64,000 nt of DNA from Promethearchaeota archaeon (GCA_019058365.1 JAHPZE010000004.1:96001-160000); one strand, 5' to 3'. Positions 6,135-44,467 are shown, counted from the stretch's first letter. Numbers and translations are program-made. Notes: generated by a model from the letters alone, not told the origin.

Positions 6135-6238
6135 GCGCGGGTGGTCTAGTGGCATGACGACAAGTATTTTACATATCGCATCTACACCGTTAAACGCTCA
6201 CACCGTGTAAATCAGGGGTTCAATTCCCCTCCTGCGCA
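6135..6238 (+). tRNA. tRNA-Val(CAC) with a 32-nt intron at non-canonical position 28/29 (6162-6193)
   Basis: Acceptor GCGCGGG/CCTGCGC-A, T arm AGGGG-TTCAATT-CCCCT; removing 6162-6193 restores anticodon arm ACACG-CT-CAC-AC-CGTGT. Confidence 0.88.
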
Positions 6239-7897: not shown

Positions 7898-9340
7898 TCA
7901 GGGATACTTAAATCTCTTCTTGAATTGTTCCCAACTTTGTGTATCTAAAGGATTCTCATTTAAAAATAAGAAATTCAGACTTTTCAAGCTTTCTATGTTT
8001 TCATTGTTAAATTTTGATATTTGGTTTCGGCCTAAATGTAACATAATTAGATTATTTAAACCCTCTAAACCCTCTAATTCCTTAATATTATTGTTATCCA
8101 GATATAATTCTTGTAAATTATTTAAAATTTTTAACCCTTCAATTTTATTAATCCTATTGTTAGATAATTCTATTTTCTTTAAGTTCACTTGAGTATCAAG
8201 GGCCTCAATTTTTCCTATTAAATTATTTGAGAGGTATAACCCCTTCAATTTAATAAGAGATGACAAACCAGCAATTTGATTAATTTTATTATCATTAAGA
8301 TACAACCACATCAAATTTTTTAAATTATTAAGTCCTCTCATCTGTTTAATTTGATTAAACGCAAGATTTAATCTATTTAACTGCTCTAAACAATCTAAAT
8401 TCTTAATTTCTGAAATATTGTTATGACTTAGATTCAATTCTTCTAATTTTGCTAAATTAGTTAAATTGTCAATTTCCTTAATTTCGTTATTATTCAGAGA
8501 TAATTTTTTCAAATGATGTAAAGAATCTAAGTTATGTATTCTACGAATTTTATTATTCGATAAATTCAAATCTTCTAAATTGTTTAAACTCTCTAAATTT
8601 TCGATCTTTCCTAATTTATTATAAGATAAATCTAAAGTCCGCAGTTTTGTTAGAATTTGGATTCCATCTATACTTTCAAGTTTATTGCGCGCTAATTGAA
8701 GATATTCTAAATTAAATAAACTTTTTAGTTCTAAAATATCAGATACTTTATTTAAATTAGAACTCTCACAATTTAAAGCATACATTTTTCCCTTTCTTAA
8801 AGTTACATGATATCCGCATTTTTTTGTATAAAACTCATTTAAAATCAAATTAATACATACTTCAAGAAACGGTTCAGGGATGGCGTCTTTAAGATTAAAA
8901 CTGTAGATTTCTTGTAAAAAATTACTATTTTTATCGCTAATTTCATTTTTAATTAAATTCTTAAGATATTCAATTACTGCTTTTCGAGCTTTCACACTAT
9001 TTATCGAATTTAAGGTTCTTACTGCATAAAGTCGCAATTCTACGTTATCAACTTTGTTTAGCGTATATTCCAACAAGGAGAGTAATTTCTTGTTGTTCGA
9101 ATACTTTTCTTTTAAAATTTGTCCAGCAATTAATCTAATTTGAAGATTTTCATCAGATAGAAATAATTGTTCAAAAAATTTGAAGTTCCTACCCTCTTCA
9201 ATTATACCATAGCTTTTTAGAGCTTTTTGTCGTATGATTGAATCACTTGAACTGTCAATCCATTCCCTTAAAAGAGCTAAATTTTCTTTCTTTCCTATTT
9301 GCTCTAACTTTTCTTTTATGAAATCTGGATTTAGTTCCAT
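7898..9340 (-). CDS. SDS22-like leucine-rich repeat protein with helical (HEAT-like) N-terminus
   Basis: About 12 LxxLxLxxNxIxxIxxL repeats. Confidence 0.88.
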   Translation of the reverse strand: MELNPDFIKEKLEQIGKKENLALLREWIDSSSDSIIRQKALKSYGIIEEGRNFKFFEQLFLSDENLQIRLIAGQILKEKYSNNKKLLSLLEYTLNKVDNVELRLYAVRTLNSINSVKARKAVIEYLKNLIKNEISDKNSNFLQEIYSFNLKDAIPEPFLEVCINLILNEFYTKKCGYHVTLRKGKMYALNCESSNLNKVSDILELKSLFNLEYLQLARNKLESIDGIQILTKLRTLDLSYNKLGKIENLESLNNLEDLNLSNNKIRRIHNLDSLHHLKKLSLNNNEIKEIDNLTNLAKLEELNLSHNNISEIKNLDCLEQLNRLNLAFNQIKQMRGLNNLKNLMWLYLNDNKINQIAGLSSLIKLKGLYLSNNLIGKIEALDTQVNLKKIELSNNRINKIEGLKILNNLQELYLDNNNIKELEGLEGLNNLIMLHLGRNQISKFNNENIESLKSLNFLFLNENPLDTQSWEQFKKRFKYP

Positions 9341-9454: not shown

Positions 9455-9715
9455 TTACATCTTATTAAGTGTTTTTGAATCGTCTATAATATCAACATCT
9501 TTTTCCTCTTTGCCTTCAACCTCTTCCTTTAATGTTTTTGAAGGTTTTGATTCATCAAAGGGAGTATTACATATCCAACACACATTTTCAGAATCAGTTA
9601 GAGCCGTAGAACACTTTAAACAGTAAAATGTCTTGCATTCAGGGCAAACATAAGTATTTCTTAAGATTTCGCTTTTACACACAATACAAATTTACTTTTC
9701 TTTAGAAGCTGAAAC
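9455..9715 (-). pseudogene. C-terminal remnant of a Cys-rich zinc-finger protein
   Basis: Frame reads VSASKEK*ICIVCKSE...CPEC..YC..C...CWIC with an in-frame TAA at 9692-9694 and no upstream gene body. Confidence 0.65.
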
Positions 9716-9741
9716 TAATTAGTACGCAATTTCAAAACATC

Positions 9742-9831
9742 AATACAATAAAAAAAGAAAAATAAAAAACTTATAATATTTATTCCCATGAATTTTGAAT
9801 GAAACCACTTAACGGGTTAGAAGCATCTGTG
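9742..9831 (-). repeat. orphan copy of the lokiactin 3' end (HRCF*) plus terminator region
   Basis: Ungapped 75/90 match to 15890-15979 (45/46 in the T-tract part). Confidence 0.9.
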
Positions 9832-10036
9832 GGAAACTAGTGGCAATGGAAATAGAGCTTTTTGAAACAACAGCTGAATCGACGAATTTAACTGGCTCAT
9901 GAATCATCTTATTCATAATTTGACAATATAATAAATAAAGATATCAATTATAGATATATTAATTAAGTTCATTTTAGATATAACTTAACATAGAAAAAGA
10001 CAAATTAAAAAAAAAGGAATTATTTGGTATATATTA

Positions 10037-10672
10037 ATGGATTATAATGAATTTCAAGCTCAAAGCATTAAATTAACTGAGGCTCTTAAAAAATACTTAA
10101 ATAAAAAAAATTTTCTTTATTATTTCGAAGATAGCATTCCTGATAGAGCTCTAAGAAGACCCGACATTATAGGACAAGAAAATAAAGAAATGGTATTTTA
10201 TGAGATTAAATCTGGAAAACACATCAATTTTTTTGGAGTTTTAGAGCAATTAAATCAATACATTCAAGAAGGAAAATATAAGAAAGGGTATTTGGTTATT
10301 TCTAAAGGGGTTAATATACCAACTAGAGCTAAGAAATTATATAAAGAGCAAGGATTTGGTATATTGGAATTAGATATAAGTAAAGTTGAACCAGAACCTA
10401 AAAAGATCTTAGAATCAGAGGATCATACGAAAAAAAGTAAAGAATTCATAGAATATAGTAAATATAGGAGTGAATGGGCACAAAAACACCCTGGAAGTTT
10501 ATCTTATCTCAAAGAGATCCTAATTTTTGTATTATGTGGAGAATTTTTAGTCAATGGAATTTGGGACTTAGTTTCTACACAAAATCTTATTTATTTATGG
10601 GTGGTAATCCCAACTAGTATTATTTTAGTTTTAGTATTTTTTTATCTTTACAGAAAAGAAAATAGAAACTAA
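10037..10672 (+). CDS. PD-(D/E)XK nuclease-like protein with two C-terminal TM helices
   Basis: RRPDII...FYEIKS motif; two hydrophobic C-terminal segments. Confidence 0.6.
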   Translation: MDYNEFQAQSIKLTEALKKYLNKKNFLYYFEDSIPDRALRRPDIIGQENKEMVFYEIKSGKHINFFGVLEQLNQYIQEGKYKKGYLVISKGVNIPTRAKKLYKEQGFGILELDISKVEPEPKKILESEDHTKKSKEFIEYSKYRSEWAQKHPGSLSYLKEILIFVLCGEFLVNGIWDLVSTQNLIYLWVVIPTSIILVLVFFYLYRKENRN

Positions 10673-10777
10673 TAGCAAAACGAATTGAAATGGCTGAAAA
10701 ACCTTATAATAAGGATGTCTTAAAAAGGAATTCTCATTTATTAGTAATCATCTATAAATAATAAGCTAGAAAATATT

Positions 10778-11407
10778 ATGAAAATAAAATATTTTTCACA
10801 ATTGTGGTATTCCGAAGATGAAACACTATGGAAATATTATTTAGAGCAATATAAAAAGCGAATCAATAAATCAAATCAAATTAAATTTGATAGATACTTG
10901 GAAAAATTAGAAGAAGAGATGTTAGAGAAATTTTCGCCTGAAAAATGGTATGATTTTCTATTAAATTTCTATTTCAAGTGGAAATATACTCAAGTGAATC
11001 GATATATAAGTCTAACAAATCATATTAAAAAATATAAGCGAGAAAATAATTTAGAAGAACTTAATGCTATAAAAACTGAGTTTTTACTTGCTGATAAAAC
11101 TAAATTAAAAGAATCACTTGAAATATTATGTAAAATACATGGATTAGGTCCGTCGGGAGCTTCAGGATTATTAGCTTTATTATACCCAACACTCTATGGG
11201 ACGATTGATCAATTTGTTATTAAGTCATTACAACAACTTGATGATTTTCCAGAGCTCAAATTCATCAATCCAGATAATCCGAGTGTTGAAGTAGTTGTTT
11301 TCATTATTGAAAAACTACAAAAAAAGGCAGAGGATATGAATAGATTGTTTAAGACCAATTTTTGGACACCTAGAAAATTAGATAAGGTAATGTGGGCATC
11401 CAGATAA
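10778..11407 (+). CDS. helix-hairpin-helix (DNA glycosylase-like) hypothetical protein
   Basis: KIHGLGPSGASGLL HhH motif followed by TID; C-terminal RKLDKVMW. Confidence 0.55.
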   Translation: MKIKYFSQLWYSEDETLWKYYLEQYKKRINKSNQIKFDRYLEKLEEEMLEKFSPEKWYDFLLNFYFKWKYTQVNRYISLTNHIKKYKRENNLEELNAIKTEFLLADKTKLKESLEILCKIHGLGPSGASGLLALLYPTLYGTIDQFVIKSLQQLDDFPELKFINPDNPSVEVVVFIIEKLQKKAEDMNRLFKTNFWTPRKLDKVMWASR

Positions 11408-11517
11408 TTAATTTTTAGCATGAAATTCTTTATTTAGAAATTAGAATAGAATTTATAATTAATTCCGGTGGGAATAACGAAAAGACTTTTTTTAATTTTA
11501 AAAAAGCTGCTGGAAGT

Positions 11518-11706
11518 ATGATATTTCAGGGTTATTTCTGGAAATTATCTAATAATAAACCTTATCAATTTCAAATGAATAATGTAAGAGATAACGCAAT
11601 GTATAGCTCAAAAAAAATGAGTCCTCCAAACCTATCACCTGAAATAAGAAAAGAGAAACTGAAAAAAGGTCTTAATATTTTAGAAGAATTTCTTGAATTA
11701 ATTTGA
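11518..11706 (+). pseudogene. probable gene remnant
   Basis: 62-aa ORF with coding-like but interrupted upstream sequence, inside an accessory island. Confidence 0.3.
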
Positions 11707-11761
11707 AAGACCGTAGGATAAGCCATTAATTATAAAGGATATGTTTGGTTAGCTTTACAAA

Positions 11762-11854
11762 TAATTAGAAATAAAATAAAAAACCTATATAATTTATCCC
11801 CTTTTGACTTTTAGCAAAATTTAAGATGTTCTAAAAACATCGGTTGATGACTTG
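11762..11854 (-). repeat. second orphan, more diverged copy of the actin 3' end (QVINRCF*) plus terminator region
   Basis: 11831-11854 minus strand CAA GTC ATC AAC CGA TGT TTT TAG vs actin QVIHRCF*; same 29-nt spacing to the GGG..AAAT/T-tract motif. Confidence 0.8.
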
Positions 11855-11860
11855 ATAAAT

Positions 11861-14800
11861 TTAAAAACAATCTAAAACAATCTGGACATCATCATAATCG
11901 TTCTTTTTCAAATCTTCTTCTTTAATGTAAAAATGAAGTCTCCCCCCACCACCCCATCTCCAATTAAGTTGCTCATCATCTCCTAATTGAAGAAGATGAA
12001 TTTGATTAAGGAAAAATGGACCCTCTTGAATCATATCAGCATAGCCAAATAATGCATGATTACTAAACATATGATTATATTCTAAAATTTTACTTCGAAT
12101 TTTTGAATAATTTCCATCAAAAATAGATTCTTCATTACAAGTAAACTTATCTCCTTTCATGAAAAGCAACAATTGAATAGAATCGGAGGGTAGATGGATA
12201 TCAGGATAAAAAGAAATATAACATGTAGGAAATGTATAATTTTTGTTTGATGAAGGATTGTGAGTTTTAAGTAAAACCGATTTATCAACGGCATAATATA
12301 TAACCCTCCATGCACCCTTATTTTTCGGATATTCAATTCCCCAATCTTCTTGTAAAGGATCATAAAAGAAGTAAAGAAATCCCGTATGTGAATGAAATTT
12401 ACTACATTCAAAATCTTTTAAATCTTCTAAATTTAATTGCATTAAAAAACTTAAAGGTCGGTTTTTCCAATAAGGCCACTCGAACTCTGGGGGTACATCT
12501 GGATTTCCACCTAATTTTGAAAATCCTATATTCCGCGGTGATTCTTTCCCAACATAAAGTTTATCTATTAATAACCTCCATTTAACTGCACTCATTATTT
12601 CGTCTTCATAACTACTAAGTTTATTTTTTTTTAATATAGCTCGAAATTTTTCTTTCCAATTTTTTTCATTTCCAGAGGTTTTATATTTTGTAATTTTCAT
12701 TAATGCTGTCTTATTTATTAAATCTGAATCACTACCAATTGTTAATTCTACAGGTAAACTATATATATTCATAGGAGGAATCAATAATGAGTGATTACCT
12801 CCTATATCTAGAAATTTTAATGATTTAAGGTTGTTTGTCGATTCAGGAAGTGAAGTTAATTTATTATCAAATAAATCTAATCTTTCAAGTAAATTTAAAT
12901 TACCAATAGTGTCAGGTAGAGATGTTAAATTGCAATGAGTTAAATCGAGGGCATTTAAGTAAACTAAATTTCCAATTGATTCAGGAAGATAAGAAATATT
13001 ACTGTATCCTAACCAAAGTCTTACAACATGGTTGTTTTTAACTTTGTAAGCATTAAACATCTCATCATGATATCCATAATCAATGATTAGTTGTTCATAG
13101 ATTAGAGCTTGTAGATCTTTAAGAGCTTGAGCTTCAGGAATGGGAAGTGTTTTCTGAAAAAAATTAAAAATAAATTTATCTATTCGATTTCCAAATCCGT
13201 GATATTCGTATCCTTTAAGTCTAATACTTGTGAATATCTGTTTTAATAAATCCAATTGTTGATCTGCGAGTAGTTCAAATAAATCTTCGACTGTTAATAG
13301 AGCTAACCAACCATAAACTTTGATATTAACTATCTCATTATAATCTTGACTCTCAATGAAAGTTCTAATTAGTTTTTGAACAGGATGAGATATACTCATA
13401 CCAATTTTTATCATAAATGCTTCAACTAGGTCCCAAGGATTCTCAAATATTTCAGAATGGAAAATTGTGTAATAGAAATTTCTAATAAATTTTATCATTA
13501 AATCTTCAGAAAGTTTAAAAAGATCTTCTTTTTCTAAATAGTGATATAATTTTAGCCATACCAAGCTTTCAATTTGTCTTTTTTCGCTTTTTTTTAATAA
13601 TTCGATAATTATTTGCTTTATAAGTTTAGAATAATTCTCTGGAAAAACAAATCTCTCAAATTCTCGTTTTTGAAGCTTTTTTACAGCTTCAGTAAACATA
13701 TCTACAGAATAAAGTTTATAATCATTCCAGATATCTTCGAAATCTTTTATATCTAAAAAGTGGAATAGCCTATTATTAAATAGAAAAATTATTTCATCAA
13801 GGTTGGATTCCTTTAAAGCATTAATTATATTTTGTTTAATACTTAAGGATTTAAGACTTTTTATCTTATCTAATTGATTTTCTTCTAATCTAATGAATTT
13901 AAGGTTTTTTAATTTAGATTTTAAATCTGGTATAAATAGGAGCTTATTTTTTCTTAAATCAAGTTCACAAAGATTATGCAAATTTCCTATAGAACTAGGA
14001 ATTGTTAAAAGTCGATTAAAATCCAAATGTAATTTTTTAAGCGAACTCAAATTCCCTATTCTATCTGGAAGTTCTTCTATCTCATTAAAACTTAAATCTA
14101 ATATTTGAAGTTTCTTTAAATTCTCAATTGAAGAAGAAATTTTTACAATTCTATTTGTATTCAAATTTAATTCTTCAAGTTTGGTTAAATCACCTATCCA
14201 ATCAGGGAGAATAGAGATTTTGTTTTCACATATATTTAATTTTCTAAGATTTTTCAGATTTTTAACCCATTCCGGTACCTTTTCAATGTTATTCCATCTT
14301 AAACTTAATTCTTCAACCCAAATTAATTCACCTAACCAATCAGGAAAAATTAGACCTATCGTGGCCATAAAAGATAAACTTTTTAGATTTTTTAGATTTT
14401 TAAGTAAATTTGGGATGTTTTTTGTCTTATAACTGTAATCTAAATGTAATTCTTGAAGCCAAGTCAATTTACCGACAATCTCAGGAACCTCTGGAAGTGT
14501 TTCTAAACATAGAGATAAGGATTTAAGTTTTTTTAAATTAATTAATGAATCTGGTAATGCTTCTAATTTTTCATTATGACTTAAATCTAGTATTTTTAAA
14601 TTAACAAGATTTCCTATTGAATCTGGAAGAATCTCGAAATCATATTCTGAGTAGACTTTTAAACTTTCAAGAGATTTAATATAACCTATTTCTTTTGGTA
14701 CTTTTAATCTTCCATAACCCGAACCTACAATTCTGATTGTTAATTCTTTTAAGTCTAAAGATTTTAAATCTTCTTTATCAATAACATCAATACAATCTTC

Positions 14801-15709
14801 ATAGATTAACCAATTTATCATCTCTTCAGCCTCATCGATACTTTTTAATTTTTCTACAGAATATTGTCTTAAAATTTCTTTTGCATGAATCACTCCTCTA
14901 AATTTGAGTTCTTCTAAGAGTCGAACAGCTTCTTCAATACCAGCATTCAAAACTGGTTCATAATTAAAATCTTCAAAAATTTTATTAATTTCTCCTTCAC
15001 TTATGTTTTTAAAGTATCCATTATCTATAAGAAACCAAAAGGACGAAGGCTCTCCCAGTTTTAGTCTTCTAATTTTTTCTTTCTCTATCATCTCTCTAGC
15101 ATCTGGGTCCCCAATTTCATCAAGTTTTACTAGTATAGAATTTACCACTTCAATATTTTTCGATTTAAAAAGTGCGTTTTTTAAATTTGGATTACTATTA
15201 ATGAAAATTTGCTTTATACAATCTGAATCAAGATATAAATCAAAAAAAGTGTCTTTATTGTAAAATTTTTTATAAAGTAAAAAATCAATCAAATGTAAAC
15301 AGCCACTTTTCAATCTTTTCATTAATTCACCCTTTATAACTTTTTGAGCTATTGGATCGCCTGATATCTCTAATTTGTGTAATAATTGGAAAGCATGTTC
15401 CCCATAAATTAATCTTGTATCATAATTGTTTTTTGCCCATGGATTTAAGTTACTACATAATTTTTCATACCAATATTCAGGGATAAATGATCTTCTTTTA
15501 ACTAATCGTCTTTCTTCTTTTTCCTTTTCATCAATTTTTTCGAGAGCATCATCTATAGAATCAACATTATAAGAAGATTTAACTTCATCAATTGAAATAT
15601 CCATATATTTAAAACTACGCATTTTATATTGTTCTTTTTTAATATAAATCACTGGTTTATTATCTTCTAATTTCACAGTAAGAAATTCATTAATATTGCA
15701 TTCCTTCAA
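11861..15709 (-). CDS. large LRR protein with C-terminal YwqG/DUF1963 domain
   Basis: Plant-like LRRs (LPxSIGNLxxL); C-terminal SKLGGNPDVP..EWP, LYFFYD, WGGGGRLHFYI. Confidence 0.85.
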   Translation of the reverse strand: MKECNINEFLTVKLEDNKPVIYIKKEQYKMRSFKYMDISIDEVKSSYNVDSIDDALEKIDEKEKEERRLVKRRSFIPEYWYEKLCSNLNPWAKNNYDTRLIYGEHAFQLLHKLEISGDPIAQKVIKGELMKRLKSGCLHLIDFLLYKKFYNKDTFFDLYLDSDCIKQIFINSNPNLKNALFKSKNIEVVNSILVKLDEIGDPDAREMIEKEKIRRLKLGEPSSFWFLIDNGYFKNISEGEINKIFEDFNYEPVLNAGIEEAVRLLEELKFRGVIHAKEILRQYSVEKLKSIDEAEEMINWLIYEDCIDVIDKEDLKSLDLKELTIRIVGSGYGRLKVPKEIGYIKSLESLKVYSEYDFEILPDSIGNLVNLKILDLSHNEKLEALPDSLINLKKLKSLSLCLETLPEVPEIVGKLTWLQELHLDYSYKTKNIPNLLKNLKNLKSLSFMATIGLIFPDWLGELIWVEELSLRWNNIEKVPEWVKNLKNLRKLNICENKISILPDWIGDLTKLEELNLNTNRIVKISSSIENLKKLQILDLSFNEIEELPDRIGNLSSLKKLHLDFNRLLTIPSSIGNLHNLCELDLRKNKLLFIPDLKSKLKNLKFIRLEENQLDKIKSLKSLSIKQNIINALKESNLDEIIFLFNNRLFHFLDIKDFEDIWNDYKLYSVDMFTEAVKKLQKREFERFVFPENYSKLIKQIIIELLKKSEKRQIESLVWLKLYHYLEKEDLFKLSEDLMIKFIRNFYYTIFHSEIFENPWDLVEAFMIKIGMSISHPVQKLIRTFIESQDYNEIVNIKVYGWLALLTVEDLFELLADQQLDLLKQIFTSIRLKGYEYHGFGNRIDKFIFNFFQKTLPIPEAQALKDLQALIYEQLIIDYGYHDEMFNAYKVKNNHVVRLWLGYSNISYLPESIGNLVYLNALDLTHCNLTSLPDTIGNLNLLERLDLFDNKLTSLPESTNNLKSLKFLDIGGNHSLLIPPMNIYSLPVELTIGSDSDLINKTALMKITKYKTSGNEKNWKEKFRAILKKNKLSSYEDEIMSAVKWRLLIDKLYVGKESPRNIGFSKLGGNPDVPPEFEWPYWKNRPLSFLMQLNLEDLKDFECSKFHSHTGFLYFFYDPLQEDWGIEYPKNKGAWRVIYYAVDKSVLLKTHNPSSNKNYTFPTCYISFYPDIHLPSDSIQLLLFMKGDKFTCNEESIFDGNYSKIRSKILEYNHMFSNHALFGYADMIQEGPFFLNQIHLLQLGDDEQLNWRWGGGGRLHFYIKEEDLKKNDYDDVQIVLDCF

Positions 15710-15889
15710 ATCTAATTCTGACCCTTTTTATATTATAATTCTTGTCTTATAATTGTATATGACACTCAAAATTATAAATTATTTTGATCCTATGAGCCTT
15801 TTTAATTTTTATATTAAGGAGTTTCAAAAACCTCAAAAATGTCCCAAATTTTCATATGTATTGAAGTAAGTTAAATTCTAATTAGTAAA

Positions 15890-15935
15890 AATACAATAAA
15901 AAAAGAAAAATAAAAAACTTATAAAATTTATTCCC
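15890..15935 (-). terminator. T-rich putative terminator downstream of lokiactin
   Basis: Minus-strand oligo-T runs 30-75 nt after the stop codon; conserved in the orphan copy. Confidence 0.6.
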
Positions 15936-15964
15936 GTTTAATTTGGGTTAATCTTCTTTGCGGA

Positions 15965-17110
15965 TTAGAAGCATCGGTGAATCACTTGTGGACCCATTTC
16001 CTTGTATTCTCTGCGTGTAACCCACATACGATGGAACGTTTTGAGGGACGAGAGAATGCTTCCACCAATCCATACTGAGTACATACGCTCTGGAGGTGCG
16101 ATAATCTTTACATCAACACTTTCAGGAATTTGCTCCTTAATTTCCTTAGTCAACCTTTCTTTGATACCAGGAAACATTGTGGAACCACCAGAAAGCACGA
16201 TATTGCTGTATAAATCTCTTCGAAGATCAACATCACATTCTGAAATGGCACCTACTATAACATCATCAAGAGGTTCTAATTCTTTACCAATTACACTCGG
16301 ATTAAAGAAACATTCAGGAGCAAGGAATCTTTCGACACCAACATTTATAGTTTCTCCATCAGGAAGCATATAGCTCTTTTCCATCCCAGCTACTTTCTTA
16401 GAAAGCATCATTTCTTTTTCAGGATCAATTGCCACATAGCATAATTTTTCCTTGATATCTCGAACTATTTCTTTTTCTGCTGATGTTGTAAAAGAATATC
16501 CCTTTTGTCGAAGAAGTCTCTGCAAATAGGTTGTAATATCTCGGCCTGCTAGATCGATTCTTTGGATAGCATGGCTTAAGGCGAATCCCTCGAAAATTGG
16601 TACAACGTGGGAAACTCCATCACCAATATCTATAACACATCCGGTAGTACGACCAGAAGCATAAAGACTCAATACTGCTTGCATTGCTACATAAAGAGCA
16701 GGGGTATTGAAAGTCTCAAACATAATTTCAGCCATTTTTTCACGGTTTGGACGTGGATTTAATGGTGCTTCAGTCAAAAGAACCGGGTGTTCACTTGGAT
16801 CGATACGCAAGTCAGTATAAAAAGTGTAGTGCCAGATTTTCTCCATTGCAGTCCAGTCTTCAATGATACCATGTTCAACAGGGAACATTAACTTTAAAAC
16901 GCCCTTTAATTGCATAGCTTCCTCACCAATATAGTACTCCCGAGTATAGTGCTCAACATCAGTCATGATACTTTCATACTTAGGATAACCAATTAGTGTA
17001 GGGAAAACTGACCTTGGTTGATCCTCACCAGCAAATCCATTCTTGGAGATTCCGGTACCATTGTCAACAACCAGGGCTTTTGCATTCAAAAAGCTTTCTT
17101 CCTCTGCCAT
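15965..17110 (-). CDS. lokiactin (bona fide actin homologue)
   Basis: [52 protein letters not shown]-terminal HRCF. Confidence 0.97.
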
Positions 17111-33555: not shown

Positions 33556-33615
33556 AAATTTTGTAATTCATTTAATTTACTTTTTGTTACATCCTGGCAT
33601 TCTGAGAAATAGGAA

Positions 33616-33699
33616 AAAGGTCAGCTCTCTGATACCTCCTTGAAGAAGGGTTGAACAGTGATTGAGGTGAGTATTCAACGGAAAGGGTCAGGGAACTGG
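33616..33699 (-). repeat. copy 1 (most diverged, promoterless) of the structured RNA element
   Basis: Shares CTCCTTGAAGAAGGGTTGAACA, ATTGAGGTGAG and TCAGGGAACTGG with 42342-42424 and 44052-44134. Confidence 0.9.
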
Positions 33700-42309: not shown

Positions 42310-42341
42310 AGGTTTAAAAAATTCAGTTTAAGAAAAATTAA

Positions 42342-42498
42342 AAAGGTCGGTTCCCTGATATCTCCTTGAAGAAGGGTTGAACAGTAATTGAGGTGAGCAT
42401 TCATCGACGAGATCAGGGAACTGGAAAATTAATTAAGCGTTAATTAATGTAAAAAATTTATCAAAATAAAACAAAAATCTATGCGTTTTCTAAATACT
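42342..42498 (-). repeat. copy 2 of the RNA element with promoter region and orphan 3' end (YLENA*) of the 92-aa gene
   Basis: Ungapped 147/157 match to 44052-44208. Confidence 0.93.
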
Positions 42499-43872: not shown

Positions 43873-44051
43873 AGTATCTATTAATCACCGGTTGATTCAT
43901 ACAATCATGAAATCTGAAACTATGATTATATTGAACATTTCTAAAAATCTAATACATAATAATGACAAAAATGTCTTTATACAAGATGTTCAAATATTTA
44001 AATCTAAATAAATATGATGTATCAATCACTCAAGAAGAAAAATAATAATAT

Positions 44052-44134
44052 AAAGGTCGGTTCCCTGATATCTCCTTGAAGAAGGGTTGAACACTGATTG
44101 AGGTGAGTATTCATGGACGAGATCAGGGAACTGG
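44052..44134 (-). ncRNA. putative ~83-nt structured small RNA (intact copy 3)
   Basis: 10-bp closing stem GUUCCCUGAU/AUCAGGGAAC, internal hairpins, upstream TATA-like box, downstream T-rich tract. Confidence 0.6.
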
Positions 44135-44137
44135 AAA

Positions 44138-44175
44138 ATTAATTAAGCGTTAATTAATATAAATAATTTATCAAA
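44138..44175 (-). promoter_or_regulatory. TATA-like promoter with overlapping palindrome ATTAATTAA-GCG-TTAATTAAT
   Basis: TTTATA ~23 nt upstream of the element on the minus strand; perfect 9-bp inverted repeat. Confidence 0.5.
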
Positions 44176-44188
44176 ATAGAAGAAAAAT

Positions 44189-44467
44189 CTATGCGTTCGC
44201 TAAATACTCATTTAGCACAATGTTTAAATCTACTTCTGAGTTCTGGACCTTCTTTAAGAGATGTCTGAGCCCATAATCATTCAATAATAACTCAATCAGA
44301 TTCTTATAAATTGCTGTAATATTATCTTTACCAGCTTCATAATAGAAATCATTCTTACTAAGAGTAAGATCCAAAATCTCATATAAGCCTTTTATGGCAT
44401 CCTTTATATTTTCGAAGTTTTTCTCGGCTTTTTCTTTCGATCTAATTTCATATTTTGAACTATTCAT
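44189..44467 (-). CDS. small helical hypothetical protein with strong RBS
   Basis: 92-aa ORF, GAGGTGA upstream of ATG; its 3' end is duplicated at 42479-42498. Confidence 0.8.
   Translation of the reverse strand: MNSSKYEIRSKEKAEKNFENIKDAIKGLYEILDLTLSKNDFYYEAGKDNITAIYKNLIELLLNDYGLRHLLKKVQNSEVDLNIVLNEYLANA

Follow-up and report, generated by a model that had tools for sequence, protein, structure and literature searches.

Orphan actin gene ends downstream of lokiactin suggest repeated exchange of DNA between Lokiarchaeal lineages

Asgard genomes are large and gene-rich. We analyzed a 64,000-nucleotide (nt) stretch from a Promethearchaeota archaeon (GCA_019058365.1 JAHPZE010000004.1:96001-160000), hereafter the window, which corresponds to positions 96001-160000 of contig C39 in the 4.74-Mb genome under study, G000. 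In this window, the gene for lokiactin is followed by two orphan copies of its own last codons, each with the downstream flank and separated by unrelated genes. Comparison with about 40 related genomes suggests that lineages have repeatedly exchanged DNA at this highly variable site, leaving the orphan tails as scars. We read the region downstream of lokiactin as a flexible genomic islet whose content may be exchanged by homologous recombination, with displaced 3' ends left behind as scars, and we hold this reading with about as much confidence as doubt.

The conserved anchor of the locus is the lokiactin gene itself (window positions 15965-17110, minus strand), which encodes a protein of 381 amino acids (aa; Pfam Actin, E 1.5e-132) and ends, in coding sense, with CCA CAA GTG ATT CAC CGA TGC TTC TAA. 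Three direct copies of a unit composed of the actin tail, a 29-nt spacer and a T-rich terminator motif were found on the same strand, at 15890-15991, 11768-11854 and 9742-9843. After the spacer, each tail leads into GGG(A/G)ATAAAT..TATA(A/G)GTTTTTTATTTT. Following the true actin end and its spacer, the T-rich motif reads GGGAATAAATTTTATAAGTTTTTTATTTTTCTTTTTTTATTGT in the sense of actin. Copy A (15875-15991, minus strand) is the true tail, with the coding end at 15965-15991, the spacer at 15936-15964 and the motif extending from 15935 downward until it runs on into ACTAATTAG. Copy B (11768-11854, minus strand) carries the orphan tail QVINRCF* at 11831-11854 (CAA GTC ATC AAC CGA TGT TTT TAG), a spacer at 11802-11830 and a decayed terminator motif. 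Copy C (9742-9843, minus strand) carries the orphan tail PLVSHRCF* at 9817-9843 (CCA CTA GTT TCC CAC AGA TGC TTC TAA), a spacer at 9788-9816 and an intact motif. Two orphan tails with this spacing and a terminator-like motif had been described in a first-pass annotation of the sequence, and the sequence is as stated there. The extent it gave for tail B holds, while tail C spans 27 nt rather than 15 nt. The same annotation regarded the differences among tails as almost all synonymous. This describes tail B, in which five of six changes relative to the actin end are silent and only H>N is not, but fits tail C less well, as it carries the non-silent changes Q>L and I>S.

The occurrence of these tail copies is far beyond chance. 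Copies A and C are 80% identical across 102 nt and share an exact 34-nt core, and a nucleotide profile of 40 actin ends from the genus (nhmmer) recovered copy C with an E-value of 1.7e-15 and copy B with one of 3e-9. When the whole G000 genome was searched for the motif with up to three mismatches, only the three copies were returned. A dispersed repeat was rejected on these grounds, and the motif was also absent from the vicinity of the actin paralogs and cassette homologs examined. Low-complexity-masked self-BLAST overlooked the actin repeat, and Rfam and Aragorn assigned the tail repeats to no known RNA family. The three copies in G000 have three different spacer types, all of which are found behind the true actin ends of other species. 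Copy A is 87% identical to the actin end of the closest relative, G066, copy C is of the type found in G007, G009 and G045, and copy B is of the G046 and G005 type (71% and 70% identity, versus 59% to the true G000 end). We also considered whether tail B derives from a lokiactin allele ending in QVINRCF, as the first-pass annotation had anticipated. When 185k species genomes were scanned with a degenerate pattern, 17 matches were obtained, about the number expected by chance and none of them in Asgard archaea; the Asn of tail B is therefore attributed to decay and not to an allele.

That the island reflects an assembly artefact, in which a separate 6.1-kb circle or a chimera of strains was joined at the 34-nt repeat that copies A and C have in common, is very improbable. 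The exact island sequence is present in contigs of three runs from a single sediment study. Depth in the source-like run was flat, at about 85x over the island and 80-96x over the flanks, and in two further low-depth samples with contigs of the strain, island and flanks fell in the same low range. An independent 6.2-kb contig covers 9747-15885 and crosses tail B with zero differences. Contigs assembled at k=31 end exactly at the shared core (9747-9771 and 15885-15920), as an artefactual join would have it, and because they break there the joins at A and C are taken from the original assembly only. However, a mis-join cannot create orphan tails that are 70-80% diverged and have non-actin sequence directly upstream. 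Moreover, the same architecture is present in at least five other independently assembled genomes, and the island codes for nothing replicative. The run contigs, which drop rare variants, include a joint of 9769 to 15962 at 3.8x with a side of 20 nt that probably belongs to another organism, and they offer no usable evidence on excised circles or empty-site variants.

Variation at this locus was assessed within the genus, comprising 54 species-level genomes, of which about 40 were inspected at the actin locus. The ancestral gene order is o19998, o18840, o17573, actin, a 480-aa leucine-rich repeat (LRR) gene, a GNAT gene and o6755. Nine genomes (G001, G005, G006, G007, G010, G015, G041, G046 and G050) have an empty site, with 144-166 nt from the actin stop to the LRR gene. 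At least 18 others hold unrelated ordinary cargo of 0.7-6.6 kb; occupied sites measure 0.7-3.3 kb in other genomes and 6.6 kb in G000. Overall, between 144 nt and 6.6 kb lie 3' of actin. Ordinary single genes, lying in either orientation, make up the cargo, which differs by genome and includes genes for an iron-sulfur protein, an LRR protein, a ferric-reductase-like protein, an AMP-ligase with a methyltransferase, an SDR protein, DUF1254/DUF1214 proteins, a Rieske protein, and a membrane protein with a zinc ribbon. The insert proteins that were scanned, from 16 relatives, included no integrase or transposase. Even within the close clade, where flanks are 85-98% identical, G005 and G046 are empty, G066 has a single gene and G000 has its 6.6 kb. 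The order in G066, the closest relative on the left side, is actin, terminator, a 406-aa membrane and zinc-ribbon gene (ORF406), and the LRR gene. These data support the actin 3' flank as a hotspot of recurrent gain or replacement. The serial hotspot proposed by the first-pass annotation is thus upheld by empty sites, unrelated cargo and recurrent orphans; the invariant gene order that would have spoken against it is not seen, with locus content varying among the roughly 40 genomes.

A deeper clade has actin turned around with respect to both flanks, and here too the 3' space is variable (0.9-4.9 kb). The inverted clade includes G013, G018, G019, G002, G043, G047, G048, G060-G062, G065, G067 and G069. 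In G022 (L089:1232-1339), an orphan tail and terminator are kept in the old orientation beside GNAT and o6755, while actin is flipped. This arrangement suggests inversion via recombination between inverted tail copies.

Orphan tails are not confined to G000. A profile search identified copies of the tail with terminator in at least five other species, with one each in G022, G024, G057 and G061 and two in G043. Weak terminator-only copies were present in G016, G023 and G067. The eight orphans keep 7, 8, 7, 8, 14, 15-18, 16-23 and 22 actin codons, and the sequences at their junctions have no common feature. Six of the eight are nearer to the true end of another species than to that of their own genome. 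The clearest case is the first G043 orphan, with 82% identity to the end of the sister G012 versus 65% to its own. Similarly, the orphan of G022 is 89% identical to the end of G041 versus 78% to its own, that of G024 82% to G010 versus 65%, and that of G057 86% to G006 versus 75%, with tail B of G000 (G046 type, as above) following the same pattern. Second copies of actin also exist, in G018 and, as an intact tandem pair, in G067 (L085, G067:C48; 2620-3762 and 5333-6490). The second actin of this pair is 93% identical in protein and 87% in DNA, with an altered N-terminus, and can be viewed as the full-length extreme of the orphan series.

The actin gene itself is mosaic. Most genomes of the genus encode the same protein (100% identity), with variation limited to silent sites and downstream genes. 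Within the tight clade of G000, G005, G066 and G046, where the proteins are identical, nt 1-800 of actin are 93-98.5% identical, while nt 901-1100 are about 79% identical, which is the genus mean. The last third of the G000 gene (about nt 810-1146; window 15965-16301, minus strand) thus shows all-synonymous divergence at the genus-wide level. Differences between G000 and G005, G066 or G046 rise from 3-4% to 20-27% past breakpoints at nt 810-940 (Fisher p 1e-16 to 1e-23). An intrinsic mutation hotspot does not account for this divergence, because the pair G045 and G021 shows no such gradient. Gene conversion from the 84% identical actin paralog on contig C34 was also rejected, as this paralog reaches 72-77% identity across the mosaic zone and its flank differs.

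A second drop in identity occurs at the far side of the island. Relative to G005, the G000 flanks are 97-98% identical, the 5' end of the LRR gene 84% and the actin 3' end 79%, forming an identity valley at both island edges. Mostly synonymous substitution peaks thus fall in actin nt 900-1100 and in the 5' end of the LRR gene, and synonymous peaks at borders are a reported signature of flexible genomic islands replaced by homologous recombination (PMC4033161). The site is also a recombination seam, since the closest genome is G066 for the left flank but G005 for the right. Together, the mosaic final 300 nt of actin and the match of orphans to other species' ends support the apparent exchange of actin-linked DNA between lineages, in line with the first-pass annotation.

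The island in G000 holds two cassettes. Cassette A is a single gene (11861-15709, minus strand) for a 1282-aa LRR protein with a DUF1963 (YwqG-like) domain (Pfam LRR_14, 2e-43; DUF1963, 4e-37), and its stop lies 6 nt short of tail B. This gene was not present at the locus in any other genome examined. The QIVLDCF* end of its product was considered as a fourth tail and rejected, since Pfam DUF1963 aligned up to the last residue and the C-terminus is therefore native. Upstream of the gene, a conserved element of about 70 nt (15725-15796, minus strand) has 84-93% matches at many sites in other genomes of the genus; it may act as a promoter or leader, or represent a small element of the mobile or RNA kind. 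Just 1-3 weak additional copies of it were noted in G000. Cassette B (10037-11706, plus strand) comprises three open reading frames (ORFs) of 211, 209 and 62 aa, named B1 to B3, with no Pfam, NCBIfam or PADLOC family; the PADLOC defence search of the cargo gave no matches. The first-pass assignment of cassette A as LRR-YwqG agrees with Pfam, while its assignment of cassette B as a nuclease with transmembrane segments and an HhH protein finds only weak atlas leads, to PD-(D/E)XK for B1 and to OGG/HhH for B2. The 209-aa B2 (10778-11407) is a member of an unnamed, mostly bacterial family (Bacillota; atlas 0.98) whose proteins have about 210 aa, and this cargo may be cross-domain in origin. Its closest homolog, in G050 (54% identity), is at a different location without tail repeats. 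Cassettes common to the locus across genomes were considered and rejected, with the LRR gene of G059 just about 30% identical.

Directly after copy C, the sequence breaks into a remnant of ORF406 (9455-9716, minus strand) consisting of its last 85 codons. A tblastn search with the G066 ORF, which is intact, aligned residues 322-406 at 76% identity, and DNA homology begins at window position 9716. A 75-aa zinc-ribbon ORF here was evaluated as a TnpB remnant and rejected, being the C-terminus of the 406-aa multi-pass membrane protein. Zinc-ribbon sequences like that of ORF406 occur in many copies across genomes of the genus. The conserved right flank is the 480-aa LRR gene (7898-9340, minus strand), whose 5' half forms the right-hand divergence boundary. 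No mobility gene (integrase or transposase) was found in the island, in agreement with the first-pass annotation. G000 has only two PF00589 tyrosine recombinases, on contigs C7 and C46 and none on the actin contig; these are the trans-acting candidates that the annotation had suggested seeking.

Our data suggest a model in which the nearly invariant actin gene serves as the left anchor. An incoming fragment carrying the 3' part of actin, its tail, its terminator and one or more neighboring genes would recombine homologously within actin, and an illegitimate join would place its far end just before the stop codon of the resident gene. The last codons and terminator of that gene would thereby be displaced downstream as an orphan, and repeated events would stack cassettes with the newest beside actin. 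This displacement reading accounts for the variable left boundary of orphans and their right boundary at their own terminator end. It also accounts for ordinary cargo that can lie in either orientation and includes no mobility genes, for orphans with affinity to other species' ends, and for 300 nt of foreign sequence inside actin. The tail scars were probably made without a dedicated mobile-element enzyme. For G000, tails B and C are 59-78% identical to its own true actin end and to that of any close relative, as compared with 97-98% identity between its flanks and those of G005; the tails were therefore not displaced recently in the G000 lineage. Most likely, the array was built elsewhere over a longer time and entered G000 en bloc from a diverged donor. 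In this event, a double crossover, with one exchange at about nt 810-940 of actin and the other within the LRR gene, would have replaced a G005-like empty site with the whole array, namely copy A, the LRR-DUF1963 gene, copy B, the three ORFs, copy C, the truncated ORF406 and the 5' part of the LRR gene. We infer the illegitimate join as well as the order and host lineage of individual events.

Similar scars exist elsewhere in G000. We scanned 2804 long ORFs, using the last 30 nt and 90 nt downstream, for a copy within 20 kb downstream on the same strand, which revealed 13 orphan-type cases including actin. The 12 other genes (loci within L096-L108, at C12:89448, C12:36925, C16:183806, C16:454258, C16:296207, C16:249422, C34:294070, C34:234815, C46:34914, C4:11065, C51:23546 and C52:38647) have an orphan of their last 17-135 nt with the downstream flank 0.5-8.6 kb further on. 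Scar-bearing genes include those for an MFS transporter, a TPP enzyme, a NosD-like protein, a cation-efflux protein, ArsA/Get3, the RFC small subunit, acetyl-CoA synthetase and a RagA-like GTPase, with the RFC and ArsA orphans checked by eye. Their cargo includes ABC transporters, CorA, MscS, corrinoid methyltransferase pairs, a sugar transporter with a GH15 enzyme, hydrolases and a SET-domain protein, and no recombinase was found among the roughly 36 cargo proteins of these loci. The island behind RFC is missing at that site in G005 and G046, and the one behind acetyl-CoA synthetase is common to both. In a control for orphans upstream of the gene, 8 cases were found versus 13 downstream, a difference that is not significant, and because of this control the raw downstream asymmetry is weak. 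A coding tail of at least 24 nt, a threshold chosen post hoc, was kept in 12 of 13 downstream versus 1 of 8 upstream cases. A broader claim can be made from these loci, though we consider it doubtful: that Lokiarchaeia routinely gain ordinary cellular genes without an integrase via resident 3' ends, with the last 8-45 codons and terminator as the scar.

Several points weigh against displacement by homologous exchange. The actin 3' segments match no sampled species above about 90%; it follows that its donors lie outside the sample or that the segment is patched together on a fine scale. The donor genome is hypothetical, as are the illegitimate joint and any microhomology at it. In addition, the second G043 orphan is nearest to the true end of its own genome (84%) and resembles a local duplication. 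Tandem duplication of the actin region in situ, with extra copies eroded to their last codons and unrelated genes moved between them, would also find precedent in the intact tandem pair of G067 and the second copy of G018, and orphan lengths do form a series from 7 codons to the full gene. We nonetheless regard duplication as improbable. Most orphans are nearer to the ends of other species than to their own, and the copies in G000 have three spacer types. Duplication also leaves unexplained both the all-synonymous mosaic in a functional actin and the two-edge identity valley, and random deletion would not so consistently spare the terminator and break just inside the coding sequence.

Two further points against displacement lend themselves to a different explanation. 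Four of the eight orphans (tails B and C of G000, and orphans in G043 and G061) start within 4 nt of one another, directly behind the Gly-Pro codons GGNCC and at 24-27 nt from the stop. Random joining would predict a looser spread, and the clustering hints that breaks are preferred here or that the site is a defined one. Divergence at the RFC locus is confined to the repeat, which equally fits a crossover in a short att-like segment. Both are consistent with site-specific or Campbell-type integration, in which circular cassettes with an attP-like tail and terminator of about 100 nt would enter by short-homology recombination or by a recombinase acting in trans, as the two tyrosine recombinases of G000 could. 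Each event would swap the terminal codons and leave direct att-like repeats, as for tRNA-gene islands or integron cassettes. Such a scheme fits the serial stacking of cassettes and the direct repeats, which extend over about 100 nt across the stop codon and have an identical 34-nt core with diverged arms, and the clustered starts keep an att-like or break-site model alive.

On balance, integration of this kind appears unlikely, if far from negligible. Neither the scanned inserts at the actin locus nor the cargo of 14 similar G000 loci contained an integrase or transposase. The boundary is not shared among insertions, as the other four orphans keep 14-22 codons and G067 the whole gene. Foreign actin sequence extends about 300 nt upstream of the repeat, beyond any att-sized site, and the cargo is made up of ordinary single genes in either orientation. 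Furthermore, the identity of the core is not diagnostic, because it is also conserved between species as a terminator. Under the broader claim of integrase-free gene gain via resident 3' ends, the clustering of short orphans after GGNCC could mean that events start at a specific double-strand break, such as restriction-type cleavage.

Two other features of the window were observed. A second island at 33.6-44.2 kb is divided by three direct repeats (33598-33680, 42324-42498 and 44034-44208; 85-165 nt, 78-92% identical) and has no mobility genes. These repeats have a long-range stem, GGTTCCCTGAT...ATCAGGGAACTGG, and match no Rfam family. At 6135-6238, Rfam calls a tRNA with 43 bits, where ARAGORN finds none.

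The silent-site mosaic in a completely conserved protein is direct evidence, at the sequence level, of homologous exchange of chromosomal DNA between Lokiarchaeal species of the same genus. New genes land beside a core cytoskeletal gene with no mobile-element machinery in view. Orphan gene tails provide a scar that can be searched for genome-wide, as the 12 further loci in G000 illustrate. If the broader claim on routine gene gain is true, an integrase-free route would have scarred at least 13 genes in G000 and repeatedly hit actin, the most conserved anchor, across the genus. The separate history of the 3' third of lokiactin also calls for caution in nucleotide-level actin phylogenies and in the use of actin synteny.

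A literature search found no paper describing this actin 3'-end islet, though it resembles several known systems in part. Like integron cassettes, the actin cargo comprises small promoter-less or single-gene units stacked by a fixed point with the newest first. Unlike integrons, the locus has no IntI, the actin contig has no PF00589 gene, and no attC-type imperfect inverted repeat or hairpin was noted; its cassettes are separated by copies of a gene end and terminator. Integrative elements and islands at the 3' ends of tRNA or protein genes offer a closer parallel, with direct repeats that hold the target 3' end, replacement of its terminal part, and tandem or serial insertion. Flanking direct repeats with the gene 3' end are indeed present at actin. 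In contrast to such elements, no integrase lies in or next to the islet, the repeat boundary varies without a shared crossover point, the cargo is not a mobile-element genome, and foreign DNA reaches hundreds of nt into the gene. An integrase-type mechanism as in tRNA islands lacks its defining parts here and is not supported. The likeness to tRNA-targeting islands drawn in the first-pass annotation accordingly finds no support, given the missing integrase in the scanned inserts, the boundary of 7-22 codons and the foreign stretch of about 300 nt.

Replacement flexible genomic islands (Lopez-Perez et al. 2014, PMC4033161) also place different genes at the same locus in very close relatives without mobility genes, and the actin islet shares their variable content between conserved flanks. 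Classical replacement islands are large clusters for exposed cell structures with no duplicated gene ends (PMC4033161), unlike the actin islet, with its 0-6.6 kb of assorted single genes and its orphan tails as marks. These marks are instead reminiscent of 3'-end displacement at rhs and contact-dependent inhibition loci (Jackson 2009) and of the sequential displacement of effector-immunity modules in type VI secretion systems (T6SS; Kirchberger 2017, PMC5361080), where a conserved gene body likewise serves as the anchor. At rhs and T6SS loci, as at actin, new 3' ends and downstream genes arrive by horizontal transfer, old ends are displaced as same-strand orphans with a conserved piece, and serial arrays form with no integrase. 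Both same-strand orphan 3' ends and a horizontal origin are found at actin. A variable, swapped protein domain is not, as rhs and T6SS loci swap a toxin domain in a protein under selection, while at actin the protein stays 100% identical and change is limited to silent sites and cargo. The actin islet further differs in its Asgard archaeal host and in cargo with no visible link to the anchor. For both rhs C-terminal displacement and T6SS arrays, the proposed mechanism is homology-facilitated illegitimate recombination (PMC5361080).

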